This document shows positions 6,074 through 64,000 of a DNA stretch of 64,000 nucleotides, in pieces. How positions within the stretch are numbered: position 1 is the stretch's first letter; each line of letters opens with the position of its first letter. The translations under genes and the position numbers were made by a program. The DNA is taken from positions 563 to 64,562 of the forward strand of contig CAYRUF010000020.1 of the NCBI GenBank assembly GCA_964427375.1. Direction: 5' to 3'. Origin of the DNA: an uncultured Desulfatibacillum sp. Its GTDB lineage: Bacteria > Desulfobacterota > Desulfobacteria > Desulfobacterales > SpSt-501. Below the pieces are notes generated by a model. The model was not told the origin of the DNA and made no database searches. It was given only the letters and a program-made list of their open reading frames with translations.

Positions 6074-6104
6074 GGGGTCCTCCTGAGCGCCGAGGAGCGG
6101 CGGG

Positions 6105-9943: not shown

Positions 9944-10007
9944 TCCCAAACCAGTCCGGACGCAACCAACACAGCTGCACCCGAATCCTTAACCAAGGAT
10001 GGTTTCG

Positions 10008-12093: not shown

Positions 12094-12102
12094 GAGGCGA
12101 AC

Positions 12103-13392: not shown

Positions 13393-13430
13393 CAACCAGC
13401 GAGCGCGGGCTTCCAATTGGAGGTGCACCA

Positions 13431-14852
13431 ATGGTGATGGGCGAACTGGCGCAGGAGACCGAGCTGCTGGTGATCGGCAGCGGACCGGGCGGCTATGCCG
13501 CGGCGTTTCGTGCGGCCGACCTCGGCATGGACGTGAGCCTGGTGGACCCGGCGCCGCGGCCGGGCGGGGTCTGCCTCTACAAAGGGTGCATCCCCTCCAA
13601 GACCTTTCTCTTCCTGGCCGAGCTCATCTTCGACGCCGAGCGGGCCGGCGCCATGGGAATCTCCTTCGGTCCTCCCCAGATCGACCTGGCCGGCCTGCGG
13701 CGCTGGAAGGCCGAGGTGATCGAGAAGATGGCGGGCGGTTTGATGAGCCTCGCCAAACGCCGGGGAGTGCAGCTCATCAACGGCCGCGCCGAATTCGAGT
13801 CCTCGGAAAGCGTGCGGGTGCACGACGCCGATATCAGCCGCATCCGCTTCCGGCACGCGATTATCGCCACCGGATCGAAGCCGATCCCGTTTCCGGGAAC
13901 CGATTTTGCGGCCGGCCGCCGGATCATGAGCTCCACCGGGGCTCTGGCGCTTGCCGATGTGCCGGAATCCCTGCTCGTTCTGGGGGGCGGCTATGTGGGC
14001 TTGGAGCTGGGGACCGTCTATGCCGCGCTCGGCAGCCGCGTCAGCGTCGTCGAACGGCAGGATCGCCTCCTGCCGGGGGTCGATCCGGACCTGGTCAATC
14101 CGCTGCAGCGGCGGTTGCAATCCATCTTCGCCGACATCCGGCTGAACACCCGCGTCCAGCAGCTGCGGGAGGAGGAGGGCGGCGTCACGGTGCAGTTGGA
14201 AGGAGACGGCGCTCCTTCCGAACAGCGCTTCGAGCGGGTGCTGGTGGCCATCGGGCGCAAGCCGGCGACCCAGGGGTTGGGCCTAGAGCATACGCGCGTT
14301 CAGGTGGATGCGAAGGGCTTCATCCGCGTGGACGAACAACGCCGCACGAACGATGCGCGCATTTTCGCCGTCGGGGACGCCGTGGGCGGCATGATGCTCG
14401 CCCACAAAGCGAGCTACGAGGGCAAGGTGGCGGCCGAGGCCATCGCCGGCCAGCCTTCGGCATTTGATGTGCGGGCGATTCCGGCCGTGGTCTACACCGA
14501 TCCCCAGATCGCCTGGTGCGGGCTTACCGAGGAGCAGGCGCGGCAGGAGCGCATCCCCGTCCAGGTGCAGCGTTTTCCATGGAAGTTCTCCGGGCGGGCG
14601 ACCACCATGGGGGCTTCCGAAGGCCTCACCAAAATTCTGGCCGATCCCGCATCCGGCCGGATCCTGGGCGTGGGGATCGCCGGCCGGAACACGGAGGGCT
14701 TGATCTCAGAGGGGGTCCTGGCCATCGAAATGGGAGCCCTGGCCGAGGACGTCGCCGCCACGATGCACCCGCATCCGACGCTCTCGGAGACGGAATCCGA
14801 GGCGGCCGAGATGTTCCTGGGTCGGGCGACGCATATCATCGGGAAACGTTAA
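13431..14852 (+). CDS. lpdA: dihydrolipoyl dehydrogenase E3
   Basis: GSGPGGY, GGVCLYKGCIPSK redox disulfide, MLAHKA, HPHPTLSE; GGAGG RBS before ATG 13431. Confidence 0.95.
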   Translation: MVMGELAQETELLVIGSGPGGYAAAFRAADLGMDVSLVDPAPRPGGVCLYKGCIPSKTFLFLAELIFDAERAGAMGISFGPPQIDLAGLRRWKAEVIEKMAGGLMSLAKRRGVQLINGRAEFESSESVRVHDADISRIRFRHAIIATGSKPIPFPGTDFAAGRRIMSSTGALALADVPESLLVLGGGYVGLELGTVYAALGSRVSVVERQDRLLPGVDPDLVNPLQRRLQSIFADIRLNTRVQQLREEEGGVTVQLEGDGAPSEQRFERVLVAIGRKPATQGLGLEHTRVQVDAKGFIRVDEQRRTNDARIFAVGDAVGGMMLAHKASYEGKVAAEAIAGQPSAFDVRAIPAVVYTDPQIAWCGLTEEQARQERIPVQVQRFPWKFSGRATTMGASEGLTKILADPASGRILGVGIAGRNTEGLISEGVLAIEMGALAEDVAATMHPHPTLSETESEAAEMFLGRATHIIGKR

Positions 14853-23975: not shown

Positions 23976-24638
23976 ATGAAACGCTTGATCCAATCGGTGA
24001 CGGTTTTGATGATCGGGTTCTGGGGGTGTGGCGCTCCGGGGTGGGCGGACACCGCCTATATTGTCGACGTCATCAAAGTGGCGCTGCGCTCCGGTCCCGG
24101 CAACGACCAAAAATCCGTCGGGATGACGGAAAGCGGGCAGCCGGTAGATGTCATCCAGGCCGGCGAGGAATGGTCGCTGGTTCGACTGGGGAACGGCATC
24201 GAGGGCTATCTGCTGAACCGCTATCTGACGGCCACCCCGCCGGCTCGCTTTCGTTTCGACCAGCTTCAGGAGAAAACCAAAGCGTTGACGGCACAGGCCG
24301 CCGGCCTGCTTGAGGATAATGCGCGCTTGAAGGCCGAAAATGAAAGGCTGGCGACCGCACTGGCGGCCGAGGAAAAGCAGATCGCTGTGTTGCAGGGCGA
24401 TTTCGATGCGTTTCGAAGAGATGTGGCCGATGTGACGGCGTTAAAGTCCAGGGCCGAGGCGCTGGCCATCGAGCTGGACCAGAAAAAAGAGGAAATCGCG
24501 CGGCTGCAATCCGGCCCTCTGGCCATCCTCGAAAACGAAAACCTGTATTGGTTTCTGGCCGGCGCCGCTGTTTTGATGGTCGGGTTTCTGGCCGGTTATG
24601 TTGTGAAACGCCCGCGTCGTTGGTCGACGCTCAGCTGA
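23976..24638 (+). CDS. SH3 domain-containing protein (TIGR04211/YgiM-like)
   Basis: Signal peptide, LRSGPG SH3b domain, coiled coil, C-terminal TM WFLAGAAVLMVGFLAG. Confidence 0.85.
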   Translation: MKRLIQSVTVLMIGFWGCGAPGWADTAYIVDVIKVALRSGPGNDQKSVGMTESGQPVDVIQAGEEWSLVRLGNGIEGYLLNRYLTATPPARFRFDQLQEKTKALTAQAAGLLEDNARLKAENERLATALAAEEKQIAVLQGDFDAFRRDVADVTALKSRAEALAIELDQKKEEIARLQSGPLAILENENLYWFLAGAAVLMVGFLAGYVVKRPRRWSTLS

Positions 24639-24673
24639 TCCGGCGCCGAATCCCGCCCCGAAATTGGAAACGC

Positions 24674-25918
24674 ATGCTTATCCACCTTATTCTGGTTCTG
24701 ATTGGGATGCTGGCGCTGTCGGCCTTTTTTTCGGCCTCCGAAACCGCCCTCGCATTCACCCGCCAGGCCAAACCGCCGCACCCGACCCGAGGCGGCGGAC
24801 GGATCGGCGGCCTGCTCGATCGCCTGCAGGAAGACCCCGATCGCTTTTTCACCACGATCCGGATCGGCAATCATCTGGCCAATGTCGCCGCCTCCTGTCT
24901 GGCCACCCTGATCGCGTTTCAGACGGTGCCCAGCCATGTCGTTGCCGCCACCACGGGGATCATGACGGTCGTGATCCTGGTTTTCGGAGAGATCATTCCC
25001 AAATCGGTTGCACCCCGCAGCCATCTCCGGATTGCGCGAACGGTGATTGTCCCGATTTACTGGCTCTCCAAACTGGTTTACCCGTTGGTGTTGTTCCTGA
25101 ACTTTATTCCGCGCATGACCGACCGGATCCAGGGGCCGCCGCGGGTCACGGAAGCCGAGCTGCTCACCATGGTGGAGGCGGTGGAGGAGGACGGGCAGAT
25201 CAAGGAGGCAGAGAAGGAGCTGATCCACAACATCTTCGAATTCGACGATACCAGCGTTTCGGAGATCATGACCCCCCGGGCGGATATGTTCGTCGTCGAC
25301 ATCAACGCGAAGCTCGATCTTGCGGAAATTTTCAGATCCGGGTTTACGCGGATCCCGATCATCGATGGGGACATGGATCACATCATCGGCATTCTCAACA
25401 TCAAGGACTTGCTGCTGCAGTCTTCCGGCGGTCTGCCATCGTTGGATCTGCGCCAGATCATGCGAGAACCCTATTTCGTTCCGGAGCACAAGAAACTGGA
25501 TAAGCTGTTGCAGGGTTTCAAACGGCGCAAGCAACACCTGGCGATCGTCGTGGACGAACACGGCGGCGTGTCGGGGCTCATCACGCTGGAAGATGCCTTG
25601 GAGGAGATCGTTGGGGAAATCAGCGACGAGACCGATATCATCGAGTCGACGATTTCATCGGTCGCTCCCGGTGAATGGCGCGTGATGGGAAAAGCCGAAA
25701 TCGGCGAGGTGAACGAGCAGCTGCAGATGAATATTCCCGATACGGGAGAATACGACACGTTTTCGGGATATGTCATGAATCGGACCGGTCGGATCCCGCG
25801 GGAAGAAGAGGAGATACCCCTCGGGGAATTCACGGCGATCGTCAAGACCCGCAAAGGCAACCGCATCATCGAATACAAGGTCTGCAAACGGTTGCCGGCC
25901 CAACCCCTGAACGCATAG
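24674..25918 (+). CDS. HlyC/CorC (CNNM) family transporter
   Basis: LSAFFSASETA, VFGEIIPK, IMTPR, CBS pair, VVDEHGG..TLEDALEEIVGEI. Confidence 0.92.
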   Translation: MLIHLILVLIGMLALSAFFSASETALAFTRQAKPPHPTRGGGRIGGLLDRLQEDPDRFFTTIRIGNHLANVAASCLATLIAFQTVPSHVVAATTGIMTVVILVFGEIIPKSVAPRSHLRIARTVIVPIYWLSKLVYPLVLFLNFIPRMTDRIQGPPRVTEAELLTMVEAVEEDGQIKEAEKELIHNIFEFDDTSVSEIMTPRADMFVVDINAKLDLAEIFRSGFTRIPIIDGDMDHIIGILNIKDLLLQSSGGLPSLDLRQIMREPYFVPEHKKLDKLLQGFKRRKQHLAIVVDEHGGVSGLITLEDALEEIVGEISDETDIIESTISSVAPGEWRVMGKAEIGEVNEQLQMNIPDTGEYDTFSGYVMNRTGRIPREEEEIPLGEFTAIVKTRKGNRIIEYKVCKRLPAQPLNA

Positions 25919-25977
25919 GGATGCCGGCGCTACCGCCGCCATCCCCATGCCGCACGCCATCCCTTTCCGGAGGGACA

Positions 25978-26247
25978 CTAGTTGACGGCGTCTTTTAAGC
26001 CCTTGCCGGCCACAAACTTGGGAGACTTGGATGCGTTGATCTTGATCTCCTCGCCGGTCTGGGGGTTACGCCCCTTGCGGGCTTTGCGCTTCACAACTTT
26101 GAACGTCCCGAATCCCACGAGCGTGACCGTATCTCCTTTTTTCAACGCCTGGGTGATGGAATCCAGAACGCAGTCCACGGCGCTCTGGGCTTCCTTCTTG
26201 GTGCTGACGACCTGAGCCACTTCATTGATGATGTCTGCTTTGTTCAT
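25978..26247 (-). CDS. hup: HU family DNA-binding protein
   Basis: MNKADII, GFGTF, RKGRNPQTG, PKFVAGK. Confidence 0.95.
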   Translation of the reverse strand: MNKADIINEVAQVVSTKKEAQSAVDCVLDSITQALKKGDTVTLVGFGTFKVVKRKARKGRNPQTGEEIKINASKSPKFVAGKGLKDAVN

Positions 26248-26340
26248 GTCTATCTCCTTTCGTTTTCTTCAATTGCCGAGTCGTGGTTAAGGGAGGGGGA
26301 TGCGGTCAACCGGCCGGCGGGCCCCGTCTCCGCAGCCGCC

Positions 26341-26526
26341 TTAAATGCTGTCGCGGCAGCTTTGGCAGTATTTTCGAGGAGTGCCCCGGCCGATCCAATG
26401 AAAGTTCATAATATGCTTCTTGCCGCACTTCGGGCACAGGCATTCCACTTTGGATTTATCATGGTCGATCACGACATCCGGATCGTCGTTGGCTGTTTCC
26501 TTGGGCGCTTTCTTGGGTGCTTTCAT
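26341..26526 (-). CDS. small hypothetical Zn-ribbon protein
   Basis: 61 aa with CPKCG and YCQSC pairs, between dksA and hup on the same strand. Confidence 0.65.
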   Translation of the reverse strand: MKAPKKAPKETANDDPDVVIDHDKSKVECLCPKCGKKHIMNFHWIGRGTPRKYCQSCRDSI

Positions 26527-26647
26527 GGTCAATTTTCGTTTTAGAGATGGCATGTCCAAACACTCCGTCCCCGATCGCTGGGTGCTGGCCGGCCAGGCGC
26601 GGAGGCAGCTCCGGCCGTTACGCAAGGCGCGGTTGCATCGGATTCGA

Positions 26648-27010
26648 TCATGTCCCGGTCAGTTTTTCACGGGCTTCGATTTGGGTTTTGCAGCGGATGC
26701 AGTGACGCGTCACCGGACGAGCCTTGAGCCGCTCGATGGCGATATCCTCCCCGCAGGATTCGCAGGTTCCGTAAACGCCCTCTTCGATGTCCTGCAAGGT
26801 TTTGCGGATCTTCTTGATGAGCATGCTTTCACGGTCCCGAATGCGCAGGGTGAAGTTGCGTTCGGAGTCGAAAACGGCGCGGTCCAACGGATCCGGCAGG
26901 CTTTCATCGCTTTCCCTGAGCCCGTTCACCGTCGAATCCGCATGAGCGAGAAGTTCCTCCAGCCAGCGGCTGAGCAGATCTTTAAAGTACTTTAAATCCT
27001 TTTCTTTCAT
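26648..27010 (-). CDS. dksA: RNA polymerase-binding protein DksA
   Basis: PDPLDRA coiled-coil tip, YGTCESCGEDI..RL.ARP...CIRCK zinc finger. Confidence 0.93.
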   Translation of the reverse strand: MKEKDLKYFKDLLSRWLEELLAHADSTVNGLRESDESLPDPLDRAVFDSERNFTLRIRDRESMLIKKIRKTLQDIEEGVYGTCESCGEDIAIERLKARPVTRHCIRCKTQIEAREKLTGT

Positions 27011-27277
27011 CTATGGCATCCCCGGAAAAGATCATACGGCAGGGTTATCAAAAACAACCAACCCCGTCAACCGTTCAAAATGGGGCTTTCTTTATTCCCG
27101 AACGCATCCATTTTTTCAAGACTTTTCTGAAAACGGTCACCGATGGATGCCGACGGGCGCCGGACCCGAAGGCGCCCCGACCGGCCCGAATGTTTGACAT
27201 AGCCGGCGGAGTTGCCTAAAATAACCGCATACGGGTCGATGAACGGCCATTTCATTGGATCTCGAAATGGAGCAGGC

Positions 27278-27607
27278 ATGGAATCGAATCCCGAAAAGCG
27301 ATGCGAAGACCGCCAGGACTGCGATGCCGTCATCGAATGGGCTTATTTTAACAGGGGGGGCTGCTTCAGCGCCCGACTGTTGAACTTCAGCAAGGGCGGC
27401 GGCTATTTCGTATCCAACCAGCCGCTGACGCCGGGAACCACCGTCCTGATTCGGGTTCGGGATTTCAGCCCCGCCGAGTCGGGAACCTGCGGCACCCGCA
27501 CCACCCTGCGGACGAACGCTCTGGGCGAGGTCAAATGGTGCCGGGAAATCAGCAGCGAGGCGGCGGCGCGATTCGGGATCGGCGTGCGCTACCATTTCCC
27601 GGTATAG
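27278..27607 (+). CDS. single-domain PilZ protein
   Basis: RxxxR (RCEDR) and NxSxxG (NFSKGG) motifs, GEVKW, GIGVRY. Confidence 0.8.
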   Translation: MESNPEKRCEDRQDCDAVIEWAYFNRGGCFSARLLNFSKGGGYFVSNQPLTPGTTVLIRVRDFSPAESGTCGTRTTLRTNALGEVKWCREISSEAAARFGIGVRYHFPV

Positions 27608-27740
27608 CGGCTTCCGCGGCGAGCCGGCGCCGGGTCCGCCCAACCCCCCTTCGTTTCGATTCACTCATACCACATCGATCGATTCCCGGGCCTCCCGCAG
27701 AGCCGGCCTCGCCTTAAACCCAATTCTCTAAGACATAGGG

Positions 27741-28598
27741 ATGGACATGCAGCAGCGACTGATCAAAATGGGGTGGAACCTTTTTCTGATTATTGCCGGA
27801 AGCGTGCTATGCGCCGTGGCCATCAACGGCATCCTCATTCCCAACCAGTTCCTGGCCGGGGGGATCAGCGGCCTGAGTCTTTTTATTTATTACCTCTTTC
27901 CGTTCATGCCGGTCGGAGTCAACAATTTCCTTCTCAATATACCGCTTTTCGCGATCGGATGGTTGTTTGTCGGGCGCCGATTCTTCTTCTACAGTCTGGC
28001 CGGGATGGTGATCTTTTCGGCGGCACTGCTCCTGCAGGTGCCGGTGTTTCCGATTCGGGACCCGCTTCTCCAAGCGCTGACCGCCGGCATCATATCCGGC
28101 ATCGGCAGCGGCGTGATCCTGAAATCCCTCGGCTCCGGCGGAGGCCTGGATATTCTCTCGGTCATTTTGCTCAAGCGCTTTTCCATCCGAATCGGCACCA
28201 CGGTCATGGCGTTCAACTGCGCCCTGCTGGCGGCCTCGCTCTTCCGCTTCAGCCTGGACATCGTTCTTTACACCTTGATCTATCTTTTTGTCACGACCCA
28301 GCTCGTCAACCTGGTGGTGACCGGGCTCAACCAGCGCAAGGCGGTCATGGTGGTCTCGCCGGCATGGCAGGCCATCGCGCGCGAGATCATGGAGACCATG
28401 CAGCGCGGGGTCACCATCGTCAACGGCGAGGGCGGTTACACCGGCCATCCGCTGCGCATCATCTATTCGGTGATCACGTTCCAGGAACTGTCCCGTTTCA
28501 AAGAGATGGTCCGCCAGCATGACCCCCTCGCGTTTCTGGTGGTGACCGAAACCCTGGAGGTGATGGGCAGGGGGATCGGCAACCAGCCGCACTGGTAA
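27741..28598 (+). CDS. YitT family membrane protein (DUF161 + DUF2179)
   Basis: FLAGGISG, LNIPLF, GSGGGLDI, RGVT...G.GGYT, DPLAF. Confidence 0.9.
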   Translation: MDMQQRLIKMGWNLFLIIAGSVLCAVAINGILIPNQFLAGGISGLSLFIYYLFPFMPVGVNNFLLNIPLFAIGWLFVGRRFFFYSLAGMVIFSAALLLQVPVFPIRDPLLQALTAGIISGIGSGVILKSLGSGGGLDILSVILLKRFSIRIGTTVMAFNCALLAASLFRFSLDIVLYTLIYLFVTTQLVNLVVTGLNQRKAVMVVSPAWQAIAREIMETMQRGVTIVNGEGGYTGHPLRIIYSVITFQELSRFKEMVRQHDPLAFLVVTETLEVMGRGIGNQPHW

Positions 28599-31268: not shown

Positions 31269-32594
31269 TTATCCCCTTCCGACATCCGGATAGCGATAGA
31301 CCTGATCGCAGTAATTGCGAAGCAGCAGGTCGTCGCCGCTGCGGCCTTCGACATAATTGGGCATGAGCGGGATCTTGCCGCCGCCCCCGGGGGCGTCGAT
31401 GACGTAGGTCGGTACCGCGTACCCGGTGGTGAAGCCGCGCAGGCCCCGGATGATTTCAAGGCCCTTTTCGACCGGCGTGCGGAAATGGCTGGAGCCGGTG
31501 ATCGGGTCGCACTGATAGATGTAATACGGCCGCACGCGCATGCGCATCAGATGATGGCAGAGCGCCTTCATGGTCTCCACCGAATCGTTGATGCCCTTCA
31601 GCAATACCGTCTGGGAGCCCAGCGGAATGCCGGCGTTGGCCAGCCGTTCGCAGGCGCGGTAGGCCTCGGCCGTGCACTCGCCCGGATGCGTGAAATGCAG
31701 GCTCATCCACAGCGGGTGGTAGCGCCGCAGGACCCTCACCAGGTTCGGGGTGATGCGCTGAGGCAGCACGGCCGGGATCTTGGTGCCGATGCGGATGATC
31801 TCCACGTGCGGGATCTCACGCAGCCGTGACAGCAGCCAGTTCAATCGCTCGTCGTTCAACGTCAGCGGGTCGCCGCCGGAGATCAGGACATCGCGGACGG
31901 ACGTGGCCGAACGGATGTAATCGATGGCGCGCTCCAGGCGCGAGCGGCTGGGATAGATGGCGCCGTGGCCGACCACGCGGGAGCGCGTGCAATAGCGGCA
32001 ATACGTGGAGCAGAAGTCCAGCACCAACAGCAGCACGCGGTCCGGGTAGCGGTGGACCAGGCCGTGGACGGGGCTCTGTCCGTCTTCGCCGAGCGGATCA
32101 TCGGCTTCTCCGGGCGTTTGGATGAACTCGGAAACCGTCGGGATCACCGTCCGGCGCAGGGCATCGTTCGGGTCGTCCTTGGAAAGCAGGCTCATGAAAT
32201 AGGGCGTGATACCGACCGGCAGCCTGGATTGGATCTTCTCGACAGCCGTGCGCTCGGCGTCGGACAGCGCCAGCATTCGTTCGAGTTGATCCAGGTGGCG
32301 GACACGATTGCGGATCTGCCACTGCCAGTCCGTCCAGTCCTTGTCGCTAGCGGACGGGAAAAAGGCCCGGCGGAAGGCGGCGGCCCTGGGGCTGGAGATG
32401 GGTCGTGATTTGGGTGCTGGGAAAACAGAAATTTTGCCCCTGAAGCGCGGGGCTACTTCCGGTAGGGGAACGACGTTGGCCAGGCAGCCGGATGAACCGG
32501 GAGGTTCTTCATCACTTTCGCCGGCCGTCTCGCTGGTTGATCCGGATGCTGCGTGGCTGTCAGAATCGTGGGACCGGACCACATCCTGTTTCAT
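31269..32594 (-). CDS. kamA: KamA family radical SAM aminomutase (lysine 2,3-aminomutase-like)
   Basis: HRYPDRVL, CSTYCRYCTR, ISGGDPL, YIYQCD, IDAPGGGGKIP (PLP lysine). Confidence 0.92.
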   Translation of the reverse strand: MKQDVVRSHDSDSHAASGSTSETAGESDEEPPGSSGCLANVVPLPEVAPRFRGKISVFPAPKSRPISSPRAAAFRRAFFPSASDKDWTDWQWQIRNRVRHLDQLERMLALSDAERTAVEKIQSRLPVGITPYFMSLLSKDDPNDALRRTVIPTVSEFIQTPGEADDPLGEDGQSPVHGLVHRYPDRVLLLVLDFCSTYCRYCTRSRVVGHGAIYPSRSRLERAIDYIRSATSVRDVLISGGDPLTLNDERLNWLLSRLREIPHVEIIRIGTKIPAVLPQRITPNLVRVLRRYHPLWMSLHFTHPGECTAEAYRACERLANAGIPLGSQTVLLKGINDSVETMKALCHHLMRMRVRPYYIYQCDPITGSSHFRTPVEKGLEIIRGLRGFTTGYAVPTYVIDAPGGGGKIPLMPNYVEGRSGDDLLLRNYCDQVYRYPDVGRG

Positions 32595-33083
32595 GGCTGT
32601 CAGAGTTCTCCTTTCACCGGGGCCTTTCAAAGGCCCATACAAATAGTTAAATAGCTTGAAGGACGAAAAAGATCAGGGTATACTATCTTTACTGGGTTGT
32701 TGTGGGTTGCCTTCCCTTTGTTTATCGGTTGGGTTTGCTGCCGATTCGGCCCCGATAGGCCAAATTCGTCCCCTCCATATAGTATTTAGATGCAGACCCT
32801 AATACAAAATATCGTTGTTGTCAATAAAATATTTTATGTTGAAAATCTAACTTTTTTCTAATCCTCTTGGAGTATTATACTGTTTTTCAACTAATAATCA
32901 AAGCTCTTTTTTTCAGTCGGGTGATGCATAAATGCGACACGTGAGGCTGCCCTGGGATATGTATCTATATTGATACGTGTATCCGGCCTCATGCATCCAA
33001 TTAGAGGCCATTTTCGTACTATCGGATTACAAAGGGCTATGGATTAGAAAAATCGAACGTCGAATTCATAAGGAGGCAGAAGC

Positions 33084-33377
33084 ATGGCTCGTAAAGTGAA
33101 AAAGGACGCTCCCAGGCGACGACGGATTGAATTTTCGATCGAGATGCCCAAGGCCAGCCAGGTGATCCTGATGGGCGATTTCAACCAGTGGGAACCGAAA
33201 ACTCATCCCATGCGCAAAGATGCGGACGGCGTATGGCGCAAGACCGTCATGATCTACCCGGGGCGGTATGAGTACCGGTTTTGGGTGGACGGCGAATGGT
33301 ACAACGACCCGCACAATCGGCTGCGCTGTCCGAACTGCTTCGGAAGCGAAAACAACGTGATCGAAGTGACCACGTGA
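33084..33377 (+). CDS. stand-alone CBM48 / isoamylase early-set domain protein
   Basis: VILMGDFNQW, GVWR, GRYEYRFWVDGEW..DP, FGSENNV. Confidence 0.88.
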   Translation: MARKVKKDAPRRRRIEFSIEMPKASQVILMGDFNQWEPKTHPMRKDADGVWRKTVMIYPGRYEYRFWVDGEWYNDPHNRLRCPNCFGSENNVIEVTT

Positions 33378-33486
33378 CCATCGGATGCTCAGTCCGGATG
33401 CCGGACGGCGGGCCGTTTCTCAGCGAGCCGAGGCGGCGGCTCAAAGCCCTGTGAGGCGAGGGAGGGCCGGCCGGGGGCGGCGGAGG

Positions 33487-35844
33487 TTATTTTTCAAGCG
33501 CCAGCTTGAGGACGTCCATCATTCGATCCACGAAGTGAAACGTGATGTCCTTTTGCACTTTCTTCGGGATGTCTTCCAGGTCCTTGTGATTTTCTTTGGG
33601 CAGGATGACCGTCTTGATTCCGGCGCGGTGGGCGGCCAGCACTTTTTCCTTGATCCCGCCCACCGGCAGCACCTGGCCGCGCAGGGTGATTTCCCCGGTC
33701 ATGGCGAGATCTTTGACCACCGCATGCTTGGTGAGGAAGGAGACCAGGGCGGTGAAGATGGTGACTCCGGCCGAGGGTCCGTCCTTGGGGATGGCGCCGG
33801 CCGGTATGTGGATGTGGATGTCCTGGCTTTCGAAGATGGTTTCGGACAGGCCCAGTTTGACGGCGTGAGTGCGGATGAAGCTCAGCGCCGCCTGGGCCGA
33901 CTCCTTCATGACATCGCCGAGTTGGCCGGTCATGATCAGGCGATCCTTGCCCTTCATGGCGGTGGCTTCGACAAAGAGGATGTCGCCGCCGACCTGGGTC
34001 CAGGCCAGGCCGGTGACCACCCCCGGCGTGGACGTGCGCGACCGGGTTTCCGCGCTGAAGCGCACCGGCCCGAGATATTTGGTGACCTGCTGGGCCTTGA
34101 TGGCCTCGGCGGTGATCGACCCCTCGGCGACTCGGCTGGCCACCCCGCGGCAGATGGAACCGATCTCGCGTTCCAGGTTGCGCAGGCCGGCCTCCCGCGT
34201 GTAGCCGGAGATGATGTGCCGCAGGGCCGCGCGGCTGAAGGTGATCTGCTCGGCCGAAAGCCCGTTGGCCGAGCGCTGGCGGGGGATCAGGTGCCGCTCG
34301 GCGATGTGGATCTTCTCGTCCTCGGTATAGCCCAGCAGCTGCAGCACTTCCATGCGGTCGCGCAGCGCCGGCGGGATCGTGTCGAGGATGTTGGCGGTGG
34401 CGATGAACATGGCTTTGGACAGGTCGAACGGCACGTCGAGATAATGGTCCTGGAAGGAGTGGTTCTGCTCGGGGTCGAGCACCTCCAGCAGGGCCGATGA
34501 GGGGTCGCCGCGGAAATCGGCGCCCAGCTTGTCGATTTCGTCGAGCATAAAAACGGGGTTGTTGGATTCGGCGCGGCGGATGCCCTGGATGACCCGTCCG
34601 GGCAGGGCGCCGACATAGGTGCGGCGGTGGCCGCGGATCTCGGCTTCGTCCCGCACGCCGCCGAGGGACATGCGATAGAACTTGCGGCCGAGGGCGCGGG
34701 CGATGGACTGGCCGAGCGAGGTCTTGCCGGTGCCGGGAGGGCCCGCAAAGCACAGGATCGGCCCCTTGGAGTCGGGCTTGAGCTTGCGCACGGCGAGATA
34801 TTCGATGATGCGGCGCTTGGGCTTTTCAAGGCCGTAATGGTCGTCGTCCAGCACCTTGCGGGCCTTCTTGATATCCAGGTTGTCCTCGGTGGCCTGGTGC
34901 CAGGGCAGGCCGGTCAGCCAATCGAGAAACGTGGTGGCGACCGTGTACTCCGCCGAGGAGGGATGCATGCGCCCGAGCCGTTCGAGCTCGCGCTCCGCCT
35001 CTTTGGCCGCCTCCGGCGGCAGGTTGGCCTCGCTGACCTTGGTGCGATAGGTCTCCACCTCGGCGGTGGCTTCGTCCTTTTCGCCCAGCTCGGCCTTGAT
35101 GGCCTTGAGCTGTTCGCGCAGGTAGTACTCGCGCTGCTTCTTGTCCATGTCCTCCTTGACCTGGTCCTGGATCTTCTTGCCCAGCTCCAGGATTTCCAGC
35201 TGCTTGTTCACGATGCGCGTGACCTCCTTCAGCCGGTCGGCCACGGGTCCGAGCTCAAGCACCTTCTGCTTTTCTTCCGCCGTGGCGTTGATGGAGGAGG
35301 CGATCATATCGGCCAGGGTGCCGGCCTCCTTGATCGACTGCGCCATGTAGACGACTTCGGCGGGAAGGGTCGGCGACGCCTGCACGACGCGCGCAAAGAG
35401 GTTCACAATATTGGTCATCAAGGCTTCGATCTCGGTATTCTGCGAGGCGTCTTCGGCCAAATGCTCGACCTCGGCCTGGAAGAAGGCCTTGCCCTCGGCC
35501 TGCACGAGGTTCTTGATCCGGAAACGCCCCAGGCCCTGGACCAGCAGCTGGGTGCGGTTTTCAGGGGTCTTGGCCATTTTGAGGATCATGGCGCTCGTTC
35601 CTACGGACGCGTAGCTCTCCGGCTTCGGCGGCCCTTCCTGGGAGGGGTCGGGTTTGGCGAAGACCATGCCGATCAGGCGGTCGCGCGACATGGCCTCGTC
35701 GATGAGCTGCACCGAATCCGGCTGCATCACCAGCAGCGGGGTCACCATCTTGGGAAACAGCACCGAGTCGACCACCGGCAGCAGGGGCAGAATATCCGGA
35801 AGCTGGTTCGCAACAGCGGCTTCAGATGATTGTTCGTCGGTCAT
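33487..35844 (-). CDS. lon: Lon protease (copy 2)
   Basis: [27 protein letters not shown]. Confidence 0.95.
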
Positions 35845-58058: not shown

Positions 58059-59786
58059 GTGAGACCAGAGGACGCCTGGAAGCGGTATGCGGCCGCCGAA
58101 GACGGAGCGGTCCGCAAGCACGCGCGCGGAAGAATCCGCATCGCATTGGCTTACCCCAACCGCTATTCCGTGGGCATGGCGAACCTGGGGCTGCACGCCG
58201 TCTATGGGCTTCTCAACCGCTATGACGACGTGGTCTGTGAACGGGTGTTCCTGCCCGAAAACGAGGACCTCGCGGCCGGACGCCTGACGACGTTCGAATC
58301 CGGGCTGCCGGTCGCCGCGGTGGACCTGATCGCCTGCTCCATTTCGTTTGAAAGCGACTACTCCCACCTGCTGACCCTCCTCCAGCTGGCCGGGATGCCT
58401 CTGCCGGCCGCGCACCGAGACGAGCGCCACCCTTTAGTGATCGCCGGCGGAATCGCCTGTTTCCTGAACCCCGAACCCATCGCCGCATTTGTCGACGCCT
58501 TTCTGATCGGAGAGGCCGAGGCGATTCTGCCTCAATTCCTGCAGGTGTTCCAGCCGGGCGCCGAGCGCCGCACGATGTTGAAGACGATCGCCCGCTCGGT
58601 CCCCGGCGCCTACGTGCCGCGCTTCTACGACGTGCGCTACGCCGCCGACGGAACCCTGAGCGCCTGGACCCCGACCGAAGAGGTCCCGTCCCGGATCGTG
58701 CGGCCGTGCGTCCCGGACCTGTCGGCGACCGCCACGTGCAGCACGGTGCTCACCCCCCACACCGCCCTGGGCGGCTCCCTGCTCGTCGAAGTCGGGCGAG
58801 GTTGCCCGCATGGCTGCCGCTTCTGCAGCGCGGGGTTCGTCTACCGGCCGCCGCGCTTCCGCACGGAGGCGTCCCTGGCGCAAACCATCGAACAGGGCCT
58901 GGCCCGCAGCCACCACATCGGCCTGGTGGGTGCGGCGGTCTCCGACCTGCCCGGCATCGCCTCGCTCTGCCGGCGGTTTTCCGGCCCGGACGTCACGCTC
59001 TCGTTCAGTTCGCTGCGGGCGGATGCGCTCCGCCCGGAGCTCCTGGACGCGCTCCGCCGCAGCCGGGTCAAAACCGCCACGATCGCTCCGGAGGCCGGCT
59101 CGGAGCGCTTGCGCCGCGTCATCAACAAGGGGATTCAAGAAGCGGACGTCCTCAATGCGGCCACGGCCCTGGTCGCCCACGGCATTCCGAACCTGAAGCT
59201 GTACTTCATGGTGGGGCTGCCGACCGAAACGAATGCGGATGTCGATGCGATTGTGGTTCTGGTCAAGCACATCAAGCACGCGTTTTTGAAATCCAGCCGA
59301 ACCCGCGGCGCCATCGGCACCCTGACGGTCAGCGTCAGTTCCTTTGTGCCGAAGCCCTTCACTCCGTTTCAGTGGGCGGCCATGGCCCCGACGGCCGAAC
59401 TCAAGGCCCGCATCAAGCGCATCCAGGCCGGACTGAAGCGCGTGCCCAACGTCCGGGTTCACTCCGATCTGCCGCGTTGGGCCTACATCCAAGCCCTGCT
59501 GGCGCGCGGTGACCGCCGGGTGGCCGACCTGCTGGTGCGGGCGGACGCGGCCGGGGGCAACTGGGCCCATGCGCTCAAAACCGGGCCGCTCAACCCGGAT
59601 TTCTACGTGCTCCGGGAGCGGGGGCCGGAAGAGATTCTGCCCTGGGACTTCATCGATCACCGCATCACCAAAGCCTACCTTCTGAACGATTACCGCCGAG
59701 CCCTGGAGGGCCGCCCGGGGACGGTCTGCCGGACGGAGTCCTGCCGGCGGTGCGGCGCCTGCGGCGAAGAATCCCTCGACACGTAG
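58059..59786 (+). CDS. radical SAM protein (TIGR03960-like, B12-binding-like N-terminus)
   Basis: YPNRYSVGMANLG, RGCPHGCRFC, TIAPEAGSERLR, LYFMVGLPTE, C-terminal CRRCGAC. Confidence 0.85.
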   Translation: MRPEDAWKRYAAAEDGAVRKHARGRIRIALAYPNRYSVGMANLGLHAVYGLLNRYDDVVCERVFLPENEDLAAGRLTTFESGLPVAAVDLIACSISFESDYSHLLTLLQLAGMPLPAAHRDERHPLVIAGGIACFLNPEPIAAFVDAFLIGEAEAILPQFLQVFQPGAERRTMLKTIARSVPGAYVPRFYDVRYAADGTLSAWTPTEEVPSRIVRPCVPDLSATATCSTVLTPHTALGGSLLVEVGRGCPHGCRFCSAGFVYRPPRFRTEASLAQTIEQGLARSHHIGLVGAAVSDLPGIASLCRRFSGPDVTLSFSSLRADALRPELLDALRRSRVKTATIAPEAGSERLRRVINKGIQEADVLNAATALVAHGIPNLKLYFMVGLPTETNADVDAIVVLVKHIKHAFLKSSRTRGAIGTLTVSVSSFVPKPFTPFQWAAMAPTAELKARIKRIQAGLKRVPNVRVHSDLPRWAYIQALLARGDRRVADLLVRADAAGGNWAHALKTGPLNPDFYVLRERGPEEILPWDFIDHRITKAYLLNDYRRALEGRPGTVCRTESCRRCGACGEESLDT

Positions 59787-59910: not shown

Positions 59911-62025
59911 ATGCTGGAAGGCATCTTTTTCATGACGGCGCTGGGTGCGGCCTGCAGCATCGTACTGGGCATCGCATCCCGCATTTTTTATGTCTACGAG
60001 GATCCGCGCATCGCCCAGGTGGAGGCGTGTTTCGCGGGGGCCAATTGCGGCGGATGCGGATTCGCCGGTTGCTCGGCGGCTGCGGCGGCCGTGGTCGGCG
60101 GCAAGGCCAAACCCAACGTGTGCGTCGTCGGCGGCATGGAATCCGCACAGAATGCGGCCGCCGTCATGGGCATGGAGGTCGGCTCGGTCGAACCGCCGAA
60201 ATCCTTCAACCCCTGCACCGGCGGCGATCGCGCCGAAAACAAGTTCCTATATATAGGGGTCGCCACCTGCCAGGCCGAAGCCGCGCTGTTCAGCGGCAAG
60301 CGGGTCTGCGAGGTCGGCTGCATCGGCCACGGCGACTGCGTGCGCGCCTGCCTGTTCAACGCCATCGCCATGGGGCCGGGCGGCTTCCCCGTCGTGGATG
60401 AGGAAAAGTGCGTGGGCTGCGGCGCCTGCGCCCGGGCCTGCCCCAAGAGCCTGCTCAAAATCAGCACCCCTTCCGAACGCCTGCTGCACTTCAACCAAGT
60501 CGGAGACTGCCTGGCGCCCTGCCGCCAGACGTGTCCGGCCGAGATCGACATTCCGCTCTATATTCATCAAATCCGCACCGGCGACTACGCCGGCGCGGTC
60601 AACACCATCCGCGAGCGCAACCCGCTGCTGCTCGCCTGCGGCCGGGTGTGCCCGCACCCCTGCGAGCTGAACTGCCGGCGCGGCGTCGCCGACGAGCCGG
60701 TCTCGATCAACCAGCTCAAGCGCTTCGCCGCCGATTACGAGATGACCTCCGGCAAGCGCCTGCCCATCCGGGTCGCGCCCGATACGGGCAAGCGAGTGGC
60801 GGTGGTCGGCGGCGGGCCGGCCGGGCTCACCTGCGCATACTTTTTGAGGCGGCTGGGCCACGGCGTCACCATCTTCGAAGCCATGCCCAAGCTCGGCGGC
60901 ATGCTGCGCTACGGCATCCCGGAATACCGTCTGCCGAAGCAGGTGCTGGACTGGGAGATCGAGAGCATCCTCAACCTGGGCGTCGAGGTCCGCACCGGGG
61001 TCCGTTTCGGATCGGACATCCAGCTCGACGGCCTCCGGGCGGACGGTTTTGATGCCGTTTTCGTGGGCGTCGGCGCCTGGAAAGACAGCAAGATGGCGGT
61101 GCCCGGCGAGGAGCTGCAAGGCTGCTACACCGGCATCGATTTCCTGGCCCGGCTCGCCTCCGGGGAGAAACTGAACATCCGACCGGTGGCTGCCGTCATC
61201 GGCGGGGGCAACACGGCGATCGACTGCACGCGCAACCTGCTGCGGCTGGGGGCCCGCAAGGTCTATCTGGTCTACCGCCGGACGCGCAAAGAGATGCCCG
61301 CCAACGAGGTCGAAGTCGAGGCGGCCGAGCACGAGGGCGTGGAGCTGATCTTCCTGAGCGCGCCGGTGCGCGTGGTGGGGGACGAGCACGGCCGCGTCAC
61401 CCACCTGGAGTACCTGCGCATGGAGCTGGGCGAGCCGGATGCCAGCGGCCGGCGCCGGCCCGTACCGGTGAAGGGCTCCGAAACGCTTCTGGCGACCGAC
61501 ATGGTGATCTCGGCCATCGGCCAAGCGCCGGATGTCTCCTTCGCGGCCAGCGCTCAACTGAAAACCACGCGGTGGAGCACCATCGAGTCTGACCCCGCCA
61601 CGCTTCAGACCAACATCCCCTTCTTGTTTGTCGCCGGTGATGTGGCCACGGGTCCATCTCTGGTCGTCGAGGCCATCGGCGGGGGACGGCGCGCGGCGCG
61701 CTCCATTCACCAGTTCGTCACCGGCCGCCCGGTGGAGGCCGAACCCAACGAGCTGCGCAAGAATCTGCTCACCGAAACCATTTTCGATCAGGTTCCCGGG
61801 GTGGTCCCGTTCCCGCGGGCGAAGATGGTGGAGCTGCCGGCCGCCGAGCGGATCCGCTCCTTTGACGAGGTCGACCAGGTGCTGACCGAAGCGGCCGCCC
61901 GGCGCGAGAGCGAACGATGCCTTTACTGCTGCCTGACCTGTTACAACCCGGACCCGACGGCACCGGGCGCCGCTCAAAATTCTGCAGCGGTTGCGGCCGC
62001 CGGCGGGCACACGCATGCCGCCTGA
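59911..62025 (+). CDS. rnfB: RnfB-like Fe-S membrane subunit fused to a GltD/NfnB-like FAD-NAD(P) oxidoreductase
   Basis: TM helix, GANCGGCGFAGC cluster, two ferredoxin motifs, then PCRQTCP/CGRVCPHPCE, GGGPAG, GGGNTAIDC..YRR. Confidence 0.85.
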   Translation: MLEGIFFMTALGAACSIVLGIASRIFYVYEDPRIAQVEACFAGANCGGCGFAGCSAAAAAVVGGKAKPNVCVVGGMESAQNAAAVMGMEVGSVEPPKSFNPCTGGDRAENKFLYIGVATCQAEAALFSGKRVCEVGCIGHGDCVRACLFNAIAMGPGGFPVVDEEKCVGCGACARACPKSLLKISTPSERLLHFNQVGDCLAPCRQTCPAEIDIPLYIHQIRTGDYAGAVNTIRERNPLLLACGRVCPHPCELNCRRGVADEPVSINQLKRFAADYEMTSGKRLPIRVAPDTGKRVAVVGGGPAGLTCAYFLRRLGHGVTIFEAMPKLGGMLRYGIPEYRLPKQVLDWEIESILNLGVEVRTGVRFGSDIQLDGLRADGFDAVFVGVGAWKDSKMAVPGEELQGCYTGIDFLARLASGEKLNIRPVAAVIGGGNTAIDCTRNLLRLGARKVYLVYRRTRKEMPANEVEVEAAEHEGVELIFLSAPVRVVGDEHGRVTHLEYLRMELGEPDASGRRRPVPVKGSETLLATDMVISAIGQAPDVSFAASAQLKTTRWSTIESDPATLQTNIPFLFVAGDVATGPSLVVEAIGGGRRAARSIHQFVTGRPVEAEPNELRKNLLTETIFDQVPGVVPFPRAKMVELPAAERIRSFDEVDQVLTEAAARRESERCLYCCLTCYNPDPTAPGAAQNSAAVAAAGGHTHAA

Positions 62026-62134: not shown

Positions 62135-62524
62135 ATGATGTTTTCGCGGAAAGAGCTGAACCTGGTTTACGTGGGAACCGCCATCCTGCTCTTCCTAGCC
62201 GTGGTGAGCTATGCGGCCTTTCCCAACCAGGCTCCGAAGCAGCCCTTGCGGATCGCGTTTCAAAGTGTGGCCGGCAAGGTCATGTTCGATCATGCCCGCC
62301 ATCGCTGGGAGGCGGGGTATAGCCTGGCCTGCGGGGAATGTCACCATACGCTGGCCCCCGATGAATACGACCAGGCCGGCTCCTGCACCGAATGCCACCC
62401 CGTAGAGGACAGCGACGATCCAATGCTCAAACGTTCGGACGCCATCCACCAGCAGTGCATCGGCTGCCATCGGGAGTACGGTGCGGGGCCGGTCGACTGC
62501 GCCCAATGTCATGTGATGCAATGA
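62135..62524 (+). CDS. tetraheme class III cytochrome c (c3-like), membrane-anchored
   Basis: Four CxxCH motifs (CGECH, CTECH, CIGCH, CAQCH), FDHARH, N-terminal hydrophobic segment. Confidence 0.9.
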   Translation: MMFSRKELNLVYVGTAILLFLAVVSYAAFPNQAPKQPLRIAFQSVAGKVMFDHARHRWEAGYSLACGECHHTLAPDEYDQAGSCTECHPVEDSDDPMLKRSDAIHQQCIGCHREYGAGPVDCAQCHVMQ

Positions 62525-62553: not shown

Positions 62554-63843
62554 ATGACCATGTTGAGTTCGAAGGCGTTTTTGGGAATGGGACTGCCGCG
62601 CCTGGAATACGCCCCGGTGCCGCCGAGGGTCGACCGTCCCGAGTCCATCCGGCCGGCAGGACCCTTGGCCCTACTGCACCCGCGTCCGGCCGAGATCCGG
62701 GCGGTTCCGGCCGTCAAGATTGGCGCCGCCGTCAAAACCGGCCAGAAACTGTCGCTCTACGGCAATGGCGACTACGTCACCGCATCGGTCACCGGAACCG
62801 TGACGTCCCTGACGCCCTTCCCGGGCAGCTTCGGCCGGAACTACACCGCCGTCGGCATTGCCCCGGGGCCCGACGATCTTTTTGACGATGCGCTGGCGGC
62901 GGCGCAAGCGACACCGTCCCTTGCCGGCGCTCTGGAGTTTCTGGCTGCCTGCCCCGGTGCGCCCGGCCTGCAACGGCTGGCCGATCCGGAGCGGCCGATC
63001 AAAACGCTGGTCGTTTGCGGGGTCGATCAGGATCTGCTCGTGTTCACCCAGCAGTATATCCTCGGCACCCGCGGCCAGGACATTCAAAAGGGAATCCGCT
63101 TGCTGAAGCAGGTCGCCGGCATCGAAGAGGTGATCATCCTCACTCGCAGGGAAGCCGTCCAGGGATACGGCCATATCGTCGGCCGGGTGATGGGTGTGGA
63201 CCACCGCTACCCCTCGGCGCTGCCGCCGCTGGTGATGGCCGGCCTCTTCGGCCGCGTGGTGCCGGCCGGCCGGACCTGCGAAGACCTGGGGTTCTGCTTC
63301 ATGAGCGCCGAGGCGGTGGCCTCGATCGGAGCGGCCTTCAACACCGGCCGCATGCCGGTCACCAAGCTTCTGACCGTCATCCCCAAGGACGGCGCGGCCC
63401 GTCTCGCGGAGGCGCCCGTCGGTACGCCCGTCGGCGAGGTGCTGAACCGCTTCGGCATCTCTATCGACGCGGGGGACCGCATCGTGACCGGCGGCCCGAT
63501 GCGGGGAACCGCCGTGTTTTCACTCGATCACCCCGTGCAGCCCGACACCGACGGCCTCCTCGTTCTCAGCGCGGCGTCCGCGGCCAACGTCTCCGACTAT
63601 CCCTGTATCAACTGCGGTGAATGCGTCCGCGTCTGCCCGGCTCGCATGCAGATCAACCTGCTGGTGCGCTACCTGGAGGCCGGCAAGTACGAAGACGCCG
63701 AGGAATCCTACGATCTGCACGCCTGCGTCGAGTGCGGGCTCTGTAGCTTCGTCTGTGTTTCGAACATCCCGATCCTACAGTACATCATGCTCGCCAAGCA
63801 CGAACTGGCGCGCATGCGATCAACGGAGACTCATGATGGCTGA
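62554..63843 (+). CDS. rnfC: RnfC-like subunit (degenerate FMN/NADH motifs)
   Basis: VKIGAAVKTGQKL, VGTPVGEVL SLBB, GGPMRG, CINCGECVRVCP and CVECGLCSFVC. Confidence 0.82.
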   Translation: MTMLSSKAFLGMGLPRLEYAPVPPRVDRPESIRPAGPLALLHPRPAEIRAVPAVKIGAAVKTGQKLSLYGNGDYVTASVTGTVTSLTPFPGSFGRNYTAVGIAPGPDDLFDDALAAAQATPSLAGALEFLAACPGAPGLQRLADPERPIKTLVVCGVDQDLLVFTQQYILGTRGQDIQKGIRLLKQVAGIEEVIILTRREAVQGYGHIVGRVMGVDHRYPSALPPLVMAGLFGRVVPAGRTCEDLGFCFMSAEAVASIGAAFNTGRMPVTKLLTVIPKDGAARLAEAPVGTPVGEVLNRFGISIDAGDRIVTGGPMRGTAVFSLDHPVQPDTDGLLVLSAASAANVSDYPCINCGECVRVCPARMQINLLVRYLEAGKYEDAEESYDLHACVECGLCSFVCVSNIPILQYIMLAKHELARMRSTETHDG

Positions 63844-64000
63844 AAAACAAAAACTCGTCGTCTCCTTCGCGCCCTTCTGGCACAACGGCAGCCGGGTGAC
63901 CGACCGCAGCCGGCAGATCTTTCTCGCCGCATTGCCCGCCGCCCTTTTCGGCGTTTACCGGTTCGGCATCGGTGCTCTGGGCGTATTGGCGCTATCCGTG
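63836..64000 (+). CDS. rnfD: RnfD-like membrane subunit (3' partial)
   Basis: LVVSFAPFWHNG..IFLAALPAALFGVYRFG N-terminus, overlapping the rnfC stop. Confidence 0.8.
   Translation, partial: MAEKQKLVVSFAPFWHNGSRVTDRSRQIFLAALPAALFGVYRFGIGALGVLALSV

Follow-up and report, generated by a model that had tools for sequence, protein, structure and literature searches.

The rnfB-gltD gene of an uncultured Desulfatibacillum sp. lies near the end of the window, which is the whole 64,000-nucleotide (nt) stretch of DNA analysed (contig CAYRUF010000020.1, positions 563 to 64,562 of the forward strand), and encodes a 704 amino acid (aa) protein in which an RnfB with its membrane anchor is fused to an NfnB/GltD-type flavoprotein. 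This gene product is the large RnfB of the complex known as 'Rnf2' or the Desulfobacula toluolica Tol2-type Rnf; it is an orthologue, and the architecture has already been published. From the motifs of the fusion protein and of the subunits encoded beside it, Rnf2 is proposed to be a reversible ion-translocating NADPH:cytochrome c3 oxidoreductase, a reading given a probability of about 0.55. Three remodelled subunits occur together: RnfB carries a module with flavin adenine dinucleotide (FAD) and NADP(H)-type motifs, RnfC is devoid of its NADH/flavin mononucleotide (FMN) motifs, and RnfD is devoid of the threonine that binds FMN covalently.

The open reading frame (ORF) of the fusion begins with ATG and is uninterrupted; an earlier reading made from the letters alone (the sequence-only reading) had reported this ORF and a series of motifs, all of which are found where they were placed. 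The top-scoring hydrophobic 19-residue windows of the protein all fall at its N-terminus, within residues 1-27; in Acetobacterium woodii the first transmembrane (TM) helix of RnfB is the membrane anchor of the subunit. The adjoining single-[4Fe-4S] domain matches PF04060 (residues 43-72, 37.4 bits against a cut-off of 23; Pfam), with C46, C49 and C54 invariant and C71 present in 67 of 69 sequences; it is equivalent to B8, the mobile domain from which the membrane [2Fe-2S] cluster is fed. Counts for cysteine, lysine and arginine residues of the fusion protein here and below refer to an alignment of 69 family members, and those for nucleotide motifs to 48 close relatives. The ferredoxin-like region includes a 4Fe-4S dicluster domain (residues 137-180; Pfam) and ten invariant cysteines (102, 120, 133, 137, 143, 147, 167, 170, 173 and 177). 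RnfB models from NCBIfam match residues 2-210 (best 163 bits, E 7.5e-48), all under their whole-protein cut-offs, and the solved clostridial-type RnfB chains align only over the first ~190 residues (9-194 of 274 for 7zc6_B, 12-193 of 333 for 9eri_B). The sequence-only reading had described a full RnfB with two ferredoxin motifs; what remains of RnfB is the TM helix with the single-cluster domain and a single dicluster domain, the flavoprotein having taken over from the distal polyferredoxin part, and of the two motifs C167-x2-C-x2-C-x3-CP is canonical whereas C133-x3-C-x5-C-x3-C147 is not. The linker from the dicluster domain to the Fer4_20 domain of the flavoprotein is short, at ~20 residues.

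The flavoprotein half matches Pyr_redox_2 (residues 295-592, 116.4 bits; Pfam) and the 'NAD(P)-binding protein' model PRK12771 (residues 200-679, 521.7 bits against a cut-off of 516; NCBIfam). The stretches G431-A436 and Y455-R456-R457-T458-R459 are invariant in the 48 close relatives, and the pattern GxGNTAxD...YRR(T/S) is common to all five solved NADP(H)-linked chains aligned over this stretch, which are Thermotoga maritima NfnB, Pyrococcus furiosus NfnI, the NfnABC large subunits of Caldicellulosiruptor saccharolyticus and Thermococcus sibiricus, and StnC. The FAD and NADP(H)-type motifs are thus supported as intact, and the module would be expected to bind both cofactors. The arginines of YRR mark NADP(H) preference in this family, and from this we infer a preference of the fusion for NADPH. 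Over residues ~190-675 the best solved relatives are 9bov_A (447.8 bits), 9n5u_A (439.8 bits) and 8oh5_C (384.1 bits), which score above NfnB, GltD and DPD; a Foldseek search with the predicted model returns the same top three, the NfnABC and StnC large subunits, in the same order. Residues 102-565 of StnC form a GltD fold with bound FAD and NADPH, in which electrons follow a linear path via two [4Fe-4S] clusters and the FAD is non-bifurcating; the FAD of the NfnABC large subunit is likewise non-bifurcating, with bifurcation occurring at the FMN 'flavobicluster' in the B and C subunits.

The fourth ligand of the FAD-proximal cluster is a published discriminator between these classes: every NfnABC enzyme has Lys at this place, whereas bifurcating NfnL has Glu. 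The corresponding column holds Lys270 ('INQLKRF') in the fusion and Lys in the three NfnABC/Stn structures, and Glu ('LERF') in 4ylf_B and 5jca_L, the NfnB/NfnL chains of T. maritima and P. furiosus; K270 is found in 67 of the 69 family members. Arg340, the equivalent of NfnB R201, is present in the same proportion (67/69) and also in both the bifurcating and the non-bifurcating class; the same Arg lies about 6 Å from N5 in non-bifurcating StnC and NfnABC. Since it is conserved in both classes, Arg340 does not discriminate for bifurcation.

The Fer4_20 match of the fusion (residues 201-280, 79.1 bits; Pfam) begins only at profile position 29, and the missing start is found at the other end of the protein. 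The RCLYC motif at residues 669-673 sits within CLYCCLTC (residues 670-677), of which C670 is present in 69/69 and C673 and C677 in 68/69 family members. The tail alone (residues 640-704) matches Fer4_20 positions 1-28 (E 0.003); when it is put ahead of residues ~198-295 a single match over positions 1-111 results, with 96.6 bits compared to 84.8 bits for the native segment. Both 9bov_A and 8oh5_C (StnC) align through the same C-terminal motif, while NfnB aligns only from residue ~45. By these alignments RCLYC is assigned to the two-cluster domain itself, as its first ligand segment moved to the C-terminus by circular permutation; the idea that the C-terminal cysteines form an extra cluster or a second electron exit was rejected on the permutation test.

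The operon reads rnfB-gltD, tetrahaem cytochrome c3, rnfC-like, rnfD, rnfG, rnfE and rnfA, with the fusion gene first; from rnfD onward it was read from a longer contig (L001), which is identical to the window over 14,090 nt without a mismatch. The RnfC of the window scores 168 bits with TIGR01945 (cut-off 246) and 23.5 bits with Complex1_51K (cut-off 31.2); compared with 9eri_C, 8ahx_C and 7zc6_C it is without GGAxFP and ECEP, and retains GGPMxG and both [4Fe-4S] motifs. The sequence-only reading had named co-occurrence with a degenerate RnfC across genomes as a check: both the GGAxFP and the ECEP motif are missing in all 28 fusion-linked RnfC and present in all 15 controls. The eight cluster cysteines are invariant in both groups, and the proteins are of similar length (411-447 aa when fusion-linked, 435-475 aa in controls); therefore, the fold is kept and the site lost. 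One of the controls is a locus from Dehalococcoidales (L049) whose 636 aa protein was examined as a candidate fusion and rejected; it is without PF04060, has the build ferredoxin-GltD-ferredoxin and is encoded close to a canonical rnf cluster.

RnfD was scored at the covalent-FMN threonine through the ATPL column of the alignment. This column holds Y, A, F or V in 23 of 24 fusion-linked RnfD and Thr in all nine controls; the RnfD of this organism has Phe (read from L001). In A. woodii T156 of RnfD binds FMN covalently, and N123 and D249 are riboflavin ligands. Fusion-linked RnfD proteins have 22 further changes at positions nearly invariant in controls, compared to only 2 such changes in RnfG. 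A 2025 supplement terms the other Rnf2 subunits 'very similar' (PMC11887813), and the loss of the RnfD threonine in fusion-type clusters may be unreported. RnfG retains SGAT at 162-165, and C27/C115 of RnfA and C27/C110 of RnfE match the [2Fe-2S] ligands of A. woodii. By these motifs the pump half of the complex (RnfA/E, RnfG) appears intact and the return half (RnfD, RnfC) degenerate. The cytochrome encoded directly after the fusion is TmcA-like, with four CxxCH motifs, a Cytochrom_CIII match of 53.3 bits and a conserved hydrophobic N-terminal segment (signal peptide or anchor); a cytochrome with 4-8 haems and a conserved hydrophobic N-terminus occurs in all 27 related clusters listed.

In the proposed mechanism the C-terminal module would bind FAD and oxidise NADPH, and single electrons would pass via the two [4Fe-4S] clusters of the flavoprotein to the RnfB clusters of the same polypeptide. 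In favour of such an input, electron exchange with ferredoxin-type clusters is known for the isolated NfnB module. From RnfB they would reach the membrane [2Fe-2S] cluster held by RnfA and RnfE, where ion translocation would be coupled, then the covalently bound FMN of periplasmic RnfG and the cytochrome c3 of the operon, probably continuing to Qrc and menaquinone; the usual return from RnfD through RnfC to NAD+ would be unused. In A. woodii electrons travel from ferredoxin through the RnfB clusters, B8 and the [2Fe-2S] cluster of RnfA/E to the FMN of RnfG; RnfD, with FMN and riboflavin, relays them to RnfC, which reduces NAD+ by way of its clusters and its FMN. Na+ translocation is proposed to take place in RnfA/E, with no evidence for it in RnfD. 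Desulfobacteraceae are described as major agents of organic carbon oxidation with sulfate in marine sediments (PMC11887813), and Qrc is formed abundantly even though some of these bacteria cannot use hydrogen or formate (PMC5109826). If the proposed activity is true, Rnf2 would bridge the gap between the nicotinamide cofactors of the cytoplasm and the carriers in membrane and periplasm that feed sulfate reduction, and be the link by which NADPH electrons reach the Qrc/menaquinone pool of complete-oxidising marine sulfate reducers.

Several points weigh against this proposal. NADPH (about -320 mV) and the haems of type I c3 are close in potential; the gap is small, and therefore outward pumping would need a higher-potential cytochrome or the pull of menaquinone. 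The invariant cluster cysteines of RnfC argue that this subunit may still carry electrons and that the D/C branch may not be dead, and ferredoxin may still dock at the retained ferredoxin-like domain, as published proposals assume. Lone fusion genes occur away from rnf genes in several Desulfatiglandales genomes. The AlphaFold2 model, built on the 48-sequence alignment, has a mean predicted local distance difference test score (pLDDT) of 64 and a predicted template modelling score of 0.59; pLDDT is 75-93 over most of the flavoprotein core and below 50 in all Fe-S regions and the C-terminal tail, because of which the cluster-FAD distances, the Arg-N5 contact and the permutation cannot be read from it. 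In the literature searched, no enzymology, cofactor analysis or structure of any Rnf2 was found. In Desulfococcus multivorans only cells adapted to lactate yielded the cluster cytochrome (PMC5109826), and the 2025 supplement notes its non-detection in proteomic studies of Desulfobacteraceae (PMC11887813).

The donor and the direction of flow are where other readings depart from the NADPH-to-cytochrome proposal. The sequence-only reading had the ferredoxin port of Rnf 'replaced or supplemented' by a direct NADP(H) site; as the flavoprotein sits where clostridial RnfB has its distal part for the docking of ferredoxin, RnfB is most naturally read as having such a direct port, at which ferredoxin may or may not still dock alongside. 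Were it supplemented, ferredoxin would remain the main donor at the RnfB ferredoxin-like domain and the flavoprotein would be an extra NADP(H) port; the subunit would then be a membrane-bound ferredoxin:NADP+ oxidoreductase or would feed the pump from two inputs, ferredoxin and NADPH. This is close to the published proposal, and the 2025 supplement assumes ferredoxin as well (PMC11887813); the N-terminal 190 residues amount to a minimal RnfB, comparable to the 190-position TIGR01944 and RsxB models, and isolated NfnB modules catalyse NADPH-linked ferredoxin oxidoreduction. However, ferredoxin is thought to dock in A. woodii at the distal clusters and basic C-terminal region, which are absent in the fusion; the short linker puts the flavoprotein probably on that same face, and an uncoupled short circuit from ferredoxin to NADP+ would waste the energy that Rnf conserves, so that ferredoxin as main donor is judged unlikely, though it deserves to be taken seriously. 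Flow in the reverse direction, from periplasmic c3 through RnfG and RnfA/E to RnfB with the gradient driving NADP+ reduction for biosynthesis or CO2 fixation, would suit the near-equal potentials of NADPH and c3, the reversibility of Rnf and the presence of a cytochrome in all clusters listed. It is held to be distinctly improbable as the physiological direction, as complete oxidisers would generate reduced nicotinamide cofactors rather than be short of them; furthermore, the hydrogenases of Desulfobacteraceae are low, substrate-specific or absent and D. multivorans is without hydrogen or formate use, and Rnf2 is constitutive and abundant during the oxidation of organic substrates (PMC11887813, PMC5109826).

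The sequence-only reading had itself favoured an ion-coupled transhydrogenase or a membrane-linked bifurcating complex, and neither idea fares well for this operon. A transhydrogenase would take NADPH at RnfB-GltD and NADH at RnfC; the NADP(H)-type site on RnfB fits, and another paralogue clade (P0123) pairs a fused RnfB with a canonical RnfC, but both nucleotide/FMN motifs are gone from RnfC here, as from all 28 fusion-linked RnfC of its clade, and RnfD is without its FMN threonine, which makes such an activity scarcely credible. Bifurcation at the FAD of the fused module, as in a membrane-linked Nfn, would draw on the NfnB fold and the conserved Arg340, and divergent paralogues adjoin NuoE/NuoF-type modules of the kind that forms the bifurcating core in Stn. 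Those paralogues, however, belong to a different clade and have degenerate NAD(P)H motifs; no gene for an NfnA/NfnS-like partner, whose FAD and [2Fe-2S] cluster would provide a second exit, was found among the operon genes or in the 10 kb flanking them on each side, and both the K270 signature in place of the Glu of bifurcating NfnB/NfnL and the non-bifurcating FAD of the closest relatives, with the same Arg, stand against it. Bifurcation at this FAD is accordingly rated very improbable.

The large RnfB was first reported by Woehlbrand et al. (2016, Proteomics), as cited in PMC5109826. Doerries et al. (2016) noted that a different mode of action had been suggested for the Tol2-type Rnf, one that 'awaits experimental verification', and described D. 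multivorans as having both an A. woodii-type Rnf1 and an Rnf2 whose cluster encodes a 15-kDa cytochrome; five of the six Rnf2 subunits were detected under all conditions (PMC5109826). A 2025 study in Science Advances places Rnf2 in the core genome of Desulfobacteraceae and finds it abundant and constitutive in six strains; the domain differences seen here and a cytochrome c3 in the cluster are set out in the supplement, which assumes a nicotinamide cofactor 'in addition to ferredoxin' (PMC11887813). The published Rnf2 features a ~700 aa RnfB with RnfB-like residues 1-200 and a pyridine-nucleotide oxidoreductase in the remaining ~500, an RnfC in which the NADH/FMN domain signature is missing, a gene for a small cytochrome c3, ordinary RnfG, -E and -A, and a host in the Desulfobacterales; the window operon is the same in all of these, however its fusion gene stands first in the operon rather than last. 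The Rnf2 literature speaks of NAD+/NADH, whereas the motifs of the fusion favour NADP(H); the Rnf2 papers do not appear to mention that RnfD has lost its threonine, that the flavoprotein has the Lys signature or that its two-cluster domain is circularly permuted. A 2025 review of RNF and NQR makes no mention of Desulfo-, NADPH, fusions, glutamate synthase or cytochrome c. The sequence-only reading had asked whether the architecture was already biochemically described as a standard ferredoxin-dependent RnfB; the architecture is published, the biochemistry is not. The architecture itself is therefore known, and the sequence-level refinements sharpen the biochemical question.

The fusion is widespread, with at least 120 protein clusters of ~700 aa that share 71-96% identity and the same domains; an exhaustive search of 1.84 billion representatives yields one main cluster and about six divergent full-length clusters. 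The fusion junction is present in at least about 40 loci or species-level genomes, a lower bound obtained by scanning species genomes for exact peptide words from the first 360 residues of one sequence. Among the matches listed, nearly all junction-bearing hosts are Desulfobacterales, Desulfatibacillum (the nearest, at 94% identity), Desulfobacula and Desulfatiglandales. As many ~700 aa clusters and about 40 genomes carry it, the fusion is no assembly artefact. Two gene orders are seen in related loci, with the fusion gene either first, as in the window, or last.

Single loci vary around this pattern. Three metagenome-assembled genomes, L012 ('Deltaproteobacteria'), L019 and L026 (Desulfatiglandales), have a lone fusion gene (~10001-12100) with no rnf genes within 10 kb; its neighbours look like housekeeping genes, offer no clue to a function and include two large convergent downstream ORFs with putative gyrase-like N-termini (by eye). 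Fusion-bearing contigs of 3-4 kb are binned as Acidobacteriota (L043) and Nakamurella (L045); as far as the L045 copy extends it is 89% identical to the protein of the window, so that mis-binning is a likelier explanation than a broader range of hosts, and L043 holds a divergent copy (41-52% identity). In L018 (12372-13741), and likewise in L014 and L015, the fusion and cytochrome genes are separated by two genes that encode cyclic-nucleotide-binding domains; one of those in L018 also matches a thioredoxin-like [2Fe-2S] family marginally (24.5 bits, cut-off 24.8), and the inserted genes may be operon regulators. In L017 (1699-5978) two tandem fused rnfB genes follow rnfG-E-A; the first is of the window type with YRRTR intact, and the second has 40% identity, a degenerate nucleotide motif and a weaker Pyr_redox_2 match.

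Divergent paralogues outside the window pair the fused RnfB with other partners. P0123 (L086:1028-7430, also in L087) is 43% identical and keeps GGGNVA, with YRR changed to CLE; an acidic residue at this place suggests NAD(H). It follows a canonical RnfC, with RnfC_N, Complex1_51K and SLBB intact, and rnfDGEA; no cytochrome gene was called near it, and HdrB/C-like genes lie downstream on the other strand. P0138 (L085:6145-11606) and P0153 (L088:3692-19173) are RnfB-GltD paralogues with 38-39% identity and degenerate NAD(P)H motifs, which adjoin NuoE-like and NuoF/HydB-like genes; L085 ends with an RseC gene, and L088 also encodes a 940 aa NuoG/Fdh-like protein, a multihaem cytochrome, a degenerate RnfC and rnfDGEA. 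P0138 and P0153 may dock a Bfu-type NuoE/NuoF(/NuoG) module onto an Rnf membrane core. The ideas of transhydrogenation and bifurcation may have some life in these three paralogues.

Table 1. Positions of the fusion gene, its domains and motifs, and the operon genes that follow it in the window.
Feature	Position (nt)	Strand	Basis or remark
rnfB-gltD fusion gene (large RnfB, Rnf2-type)	59911..62025	+	ORF, domains, full-length homologues, published ~700 aa RnfB
N-terminal TM anchor, residues 1-27	59911..59991	+	Hydropathy; solved RnfB chains align here at their N-terminus
Single-[4Fe-4S] FeS domain, residues 40-72 (C46, C49, C54, C71)	60028..60126	+	PF04060
Ferredoxin-like cluster region, residues 102-180	60214..60450	+	Pfam Fer4 families at 137-180
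Fer4_20 two-cluster domain, residues 200-280, profile 29-111	60508..60750	+	Pfam, K270
K270, NfnABC/Stn-type ligand position	60718-60720	+	
FAD/NAD(P)H flavoprotein core, residues 295-592	60793..61686	+	Pyr_redox_2, motifs, invariance, solved relatives
FAD motif GGGPAG, residues 300-305	60808-60825	+	
NADPH motif GGGNTA, residues 431-436	61201-61218	+	
YRRTR, residues 455-459	61273-61287	+	
C-terminal tail E-S-x-R-C670-L-x-C673-x3-C677-Y, residues 640-680	61828..61950	+	Fer4_20 profile 1-28
Tetrahaem cytochrome c3-family gene, 129 aa from ATG	62135..62524	+	Cytochrom_CIII; TTG-started ORF from 62111
rnfC-like gene, 429 aa	62554..63843	+	TIGR01945, Complex1_51K, alignments to solved RnfC
rnfD start	63833..64000	+	Runs off the window (first 168 nt inside); L001:13923-14885

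The operon is directly preceded by a B12-binding radical-SAM gene (58059-59786) of the uncharacterised family TIGR03960 (438 bits, cut-off 462), and a gene of this type has the same place on three independent contigs. A cell-division and cell-wall cluster also lies upstream, convergent genes lie downstream of the operon (read from L001), and the window is otherwise housekeeping in content. No plus-strand terminator-like site was found between the operon genes inside the window, and a promoter and terminator scan gave no signal over shuffle expectation. Elsewhere the window encodes a complete 2-oxoacid dehydrogenase complex (E1 alpha, E1 beta, E2 and E3; 9999-14852), the host being presumed a strict anaerobe, as well as RtcB (4622-6112, minus strand) and an acyl-CoA dehydrogenase (8133-9278, minus strand). 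The GC content is 0.56-0.59 at 24001-28000 and 32001-34000, where there are few confident ORFs, and about 0.65 elsewhere.

Compared with canonical Rnf, as known from A. woodii (9eri), Clostridium tetanomorphum (7zc6) and Azotobacter vinelandii (8ahx), the complex has a homologous six-subunit core in common and keeps the RnfB TM helix and B8-type domain, the RnfA/E cysteine pairs, the RnfG SGAT motif and the two RnfC [4Fe-4S] motifs. It differs in that a FAD/NADPH module stands in for the distal polyferredoxin, the RnfC NADH/FMN motifs and the RnfD threonine are gone, and a cytochrome gene is added. The Rnf of Methanosarcina acetivorans does not use NAD(P), and a cytochrome c co-transcribed with it is the proposed acceptor of electrons from RnfG; the RnfC of this Rnf likewise keeps two [4Fe-4S] motifs, however the donor is ferredoxin at an ordinary RnfB with no fused flavoprotein.

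The flavoprotein half has in common with StnC (8oh5_C) and with NfnA of NfnABC (9bov_A, 9n5u_A) the permuted Fer4_20 with a C-terminal RCLxC, the Lys ligand and the NADPH motif, while C114 of StnC is Ile in the fusion. Unlike NfnABC and Stn, the fusion has neither a NuoG/Fdh-like domain, as the protein ends at residue 704, nor NuoE/NuoF-type partners encoded in the operon; its module is instead wired to RnfB and the membrane. NfnB/NfnL (4ylf_B, 5jca_L) shows the same fold with FAD, NADPH and two-cluster motifs, at 39% identity in a fold alignment, but has the Glu ligand, the start of Fer4_20 at the N-terminus and NfnA as partner; in the fusion the ligand is Lys, the start is C-terminal and no such gene is in the operon.

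The Na+-translocating NADH:quinone oxidoreductase (Na+-NQR) offers a functional parallel, in that its ferredoxin-input subunit is replaced by a TM-anchored nicotinamide-oxidising flavoprotein and its RnfC homologue, NqrA, is without nucleotide and FMN sites; Rnf2 would be alike in both respects. The flavoprotein in question, NqrF, is the NADH input, contains FAD and a [2Fe-2S] cluster, has the reductase subunit of aromatic monooxygenases as its closest relative and is unrelated to any RNF subunit, whereas the input module of Rnf2 is of the GltD type. NqrA is cofactor-free and has lost its clusters, whereas the fusion-linked RnfC keeps its eight cluster cysteines; NqrB retains a covalent FMN and ubiquinone is the acceptor, whereas in Rnf2 the RnfD threonine is lost and the acceptor is likely a cytochrome. 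The resemblance to Na+-NQR is one of function and not of membership. It is suggested, tentatively and at somewhat less than even odds, that the Rnf2 pump arose by an NQR-like rewiring of Rnf independent of NQR itself, in which a non-bifurcating NADPH module of the NfnABC type was grafted onto RnfB, the RnfD/RnfC branch was switched off and electrons came to leave from periplasmic RnfG to a dedicated cytochrome; if true, Rnf2 would be a second, independent case of Rnf-to-NQR type rewiring.

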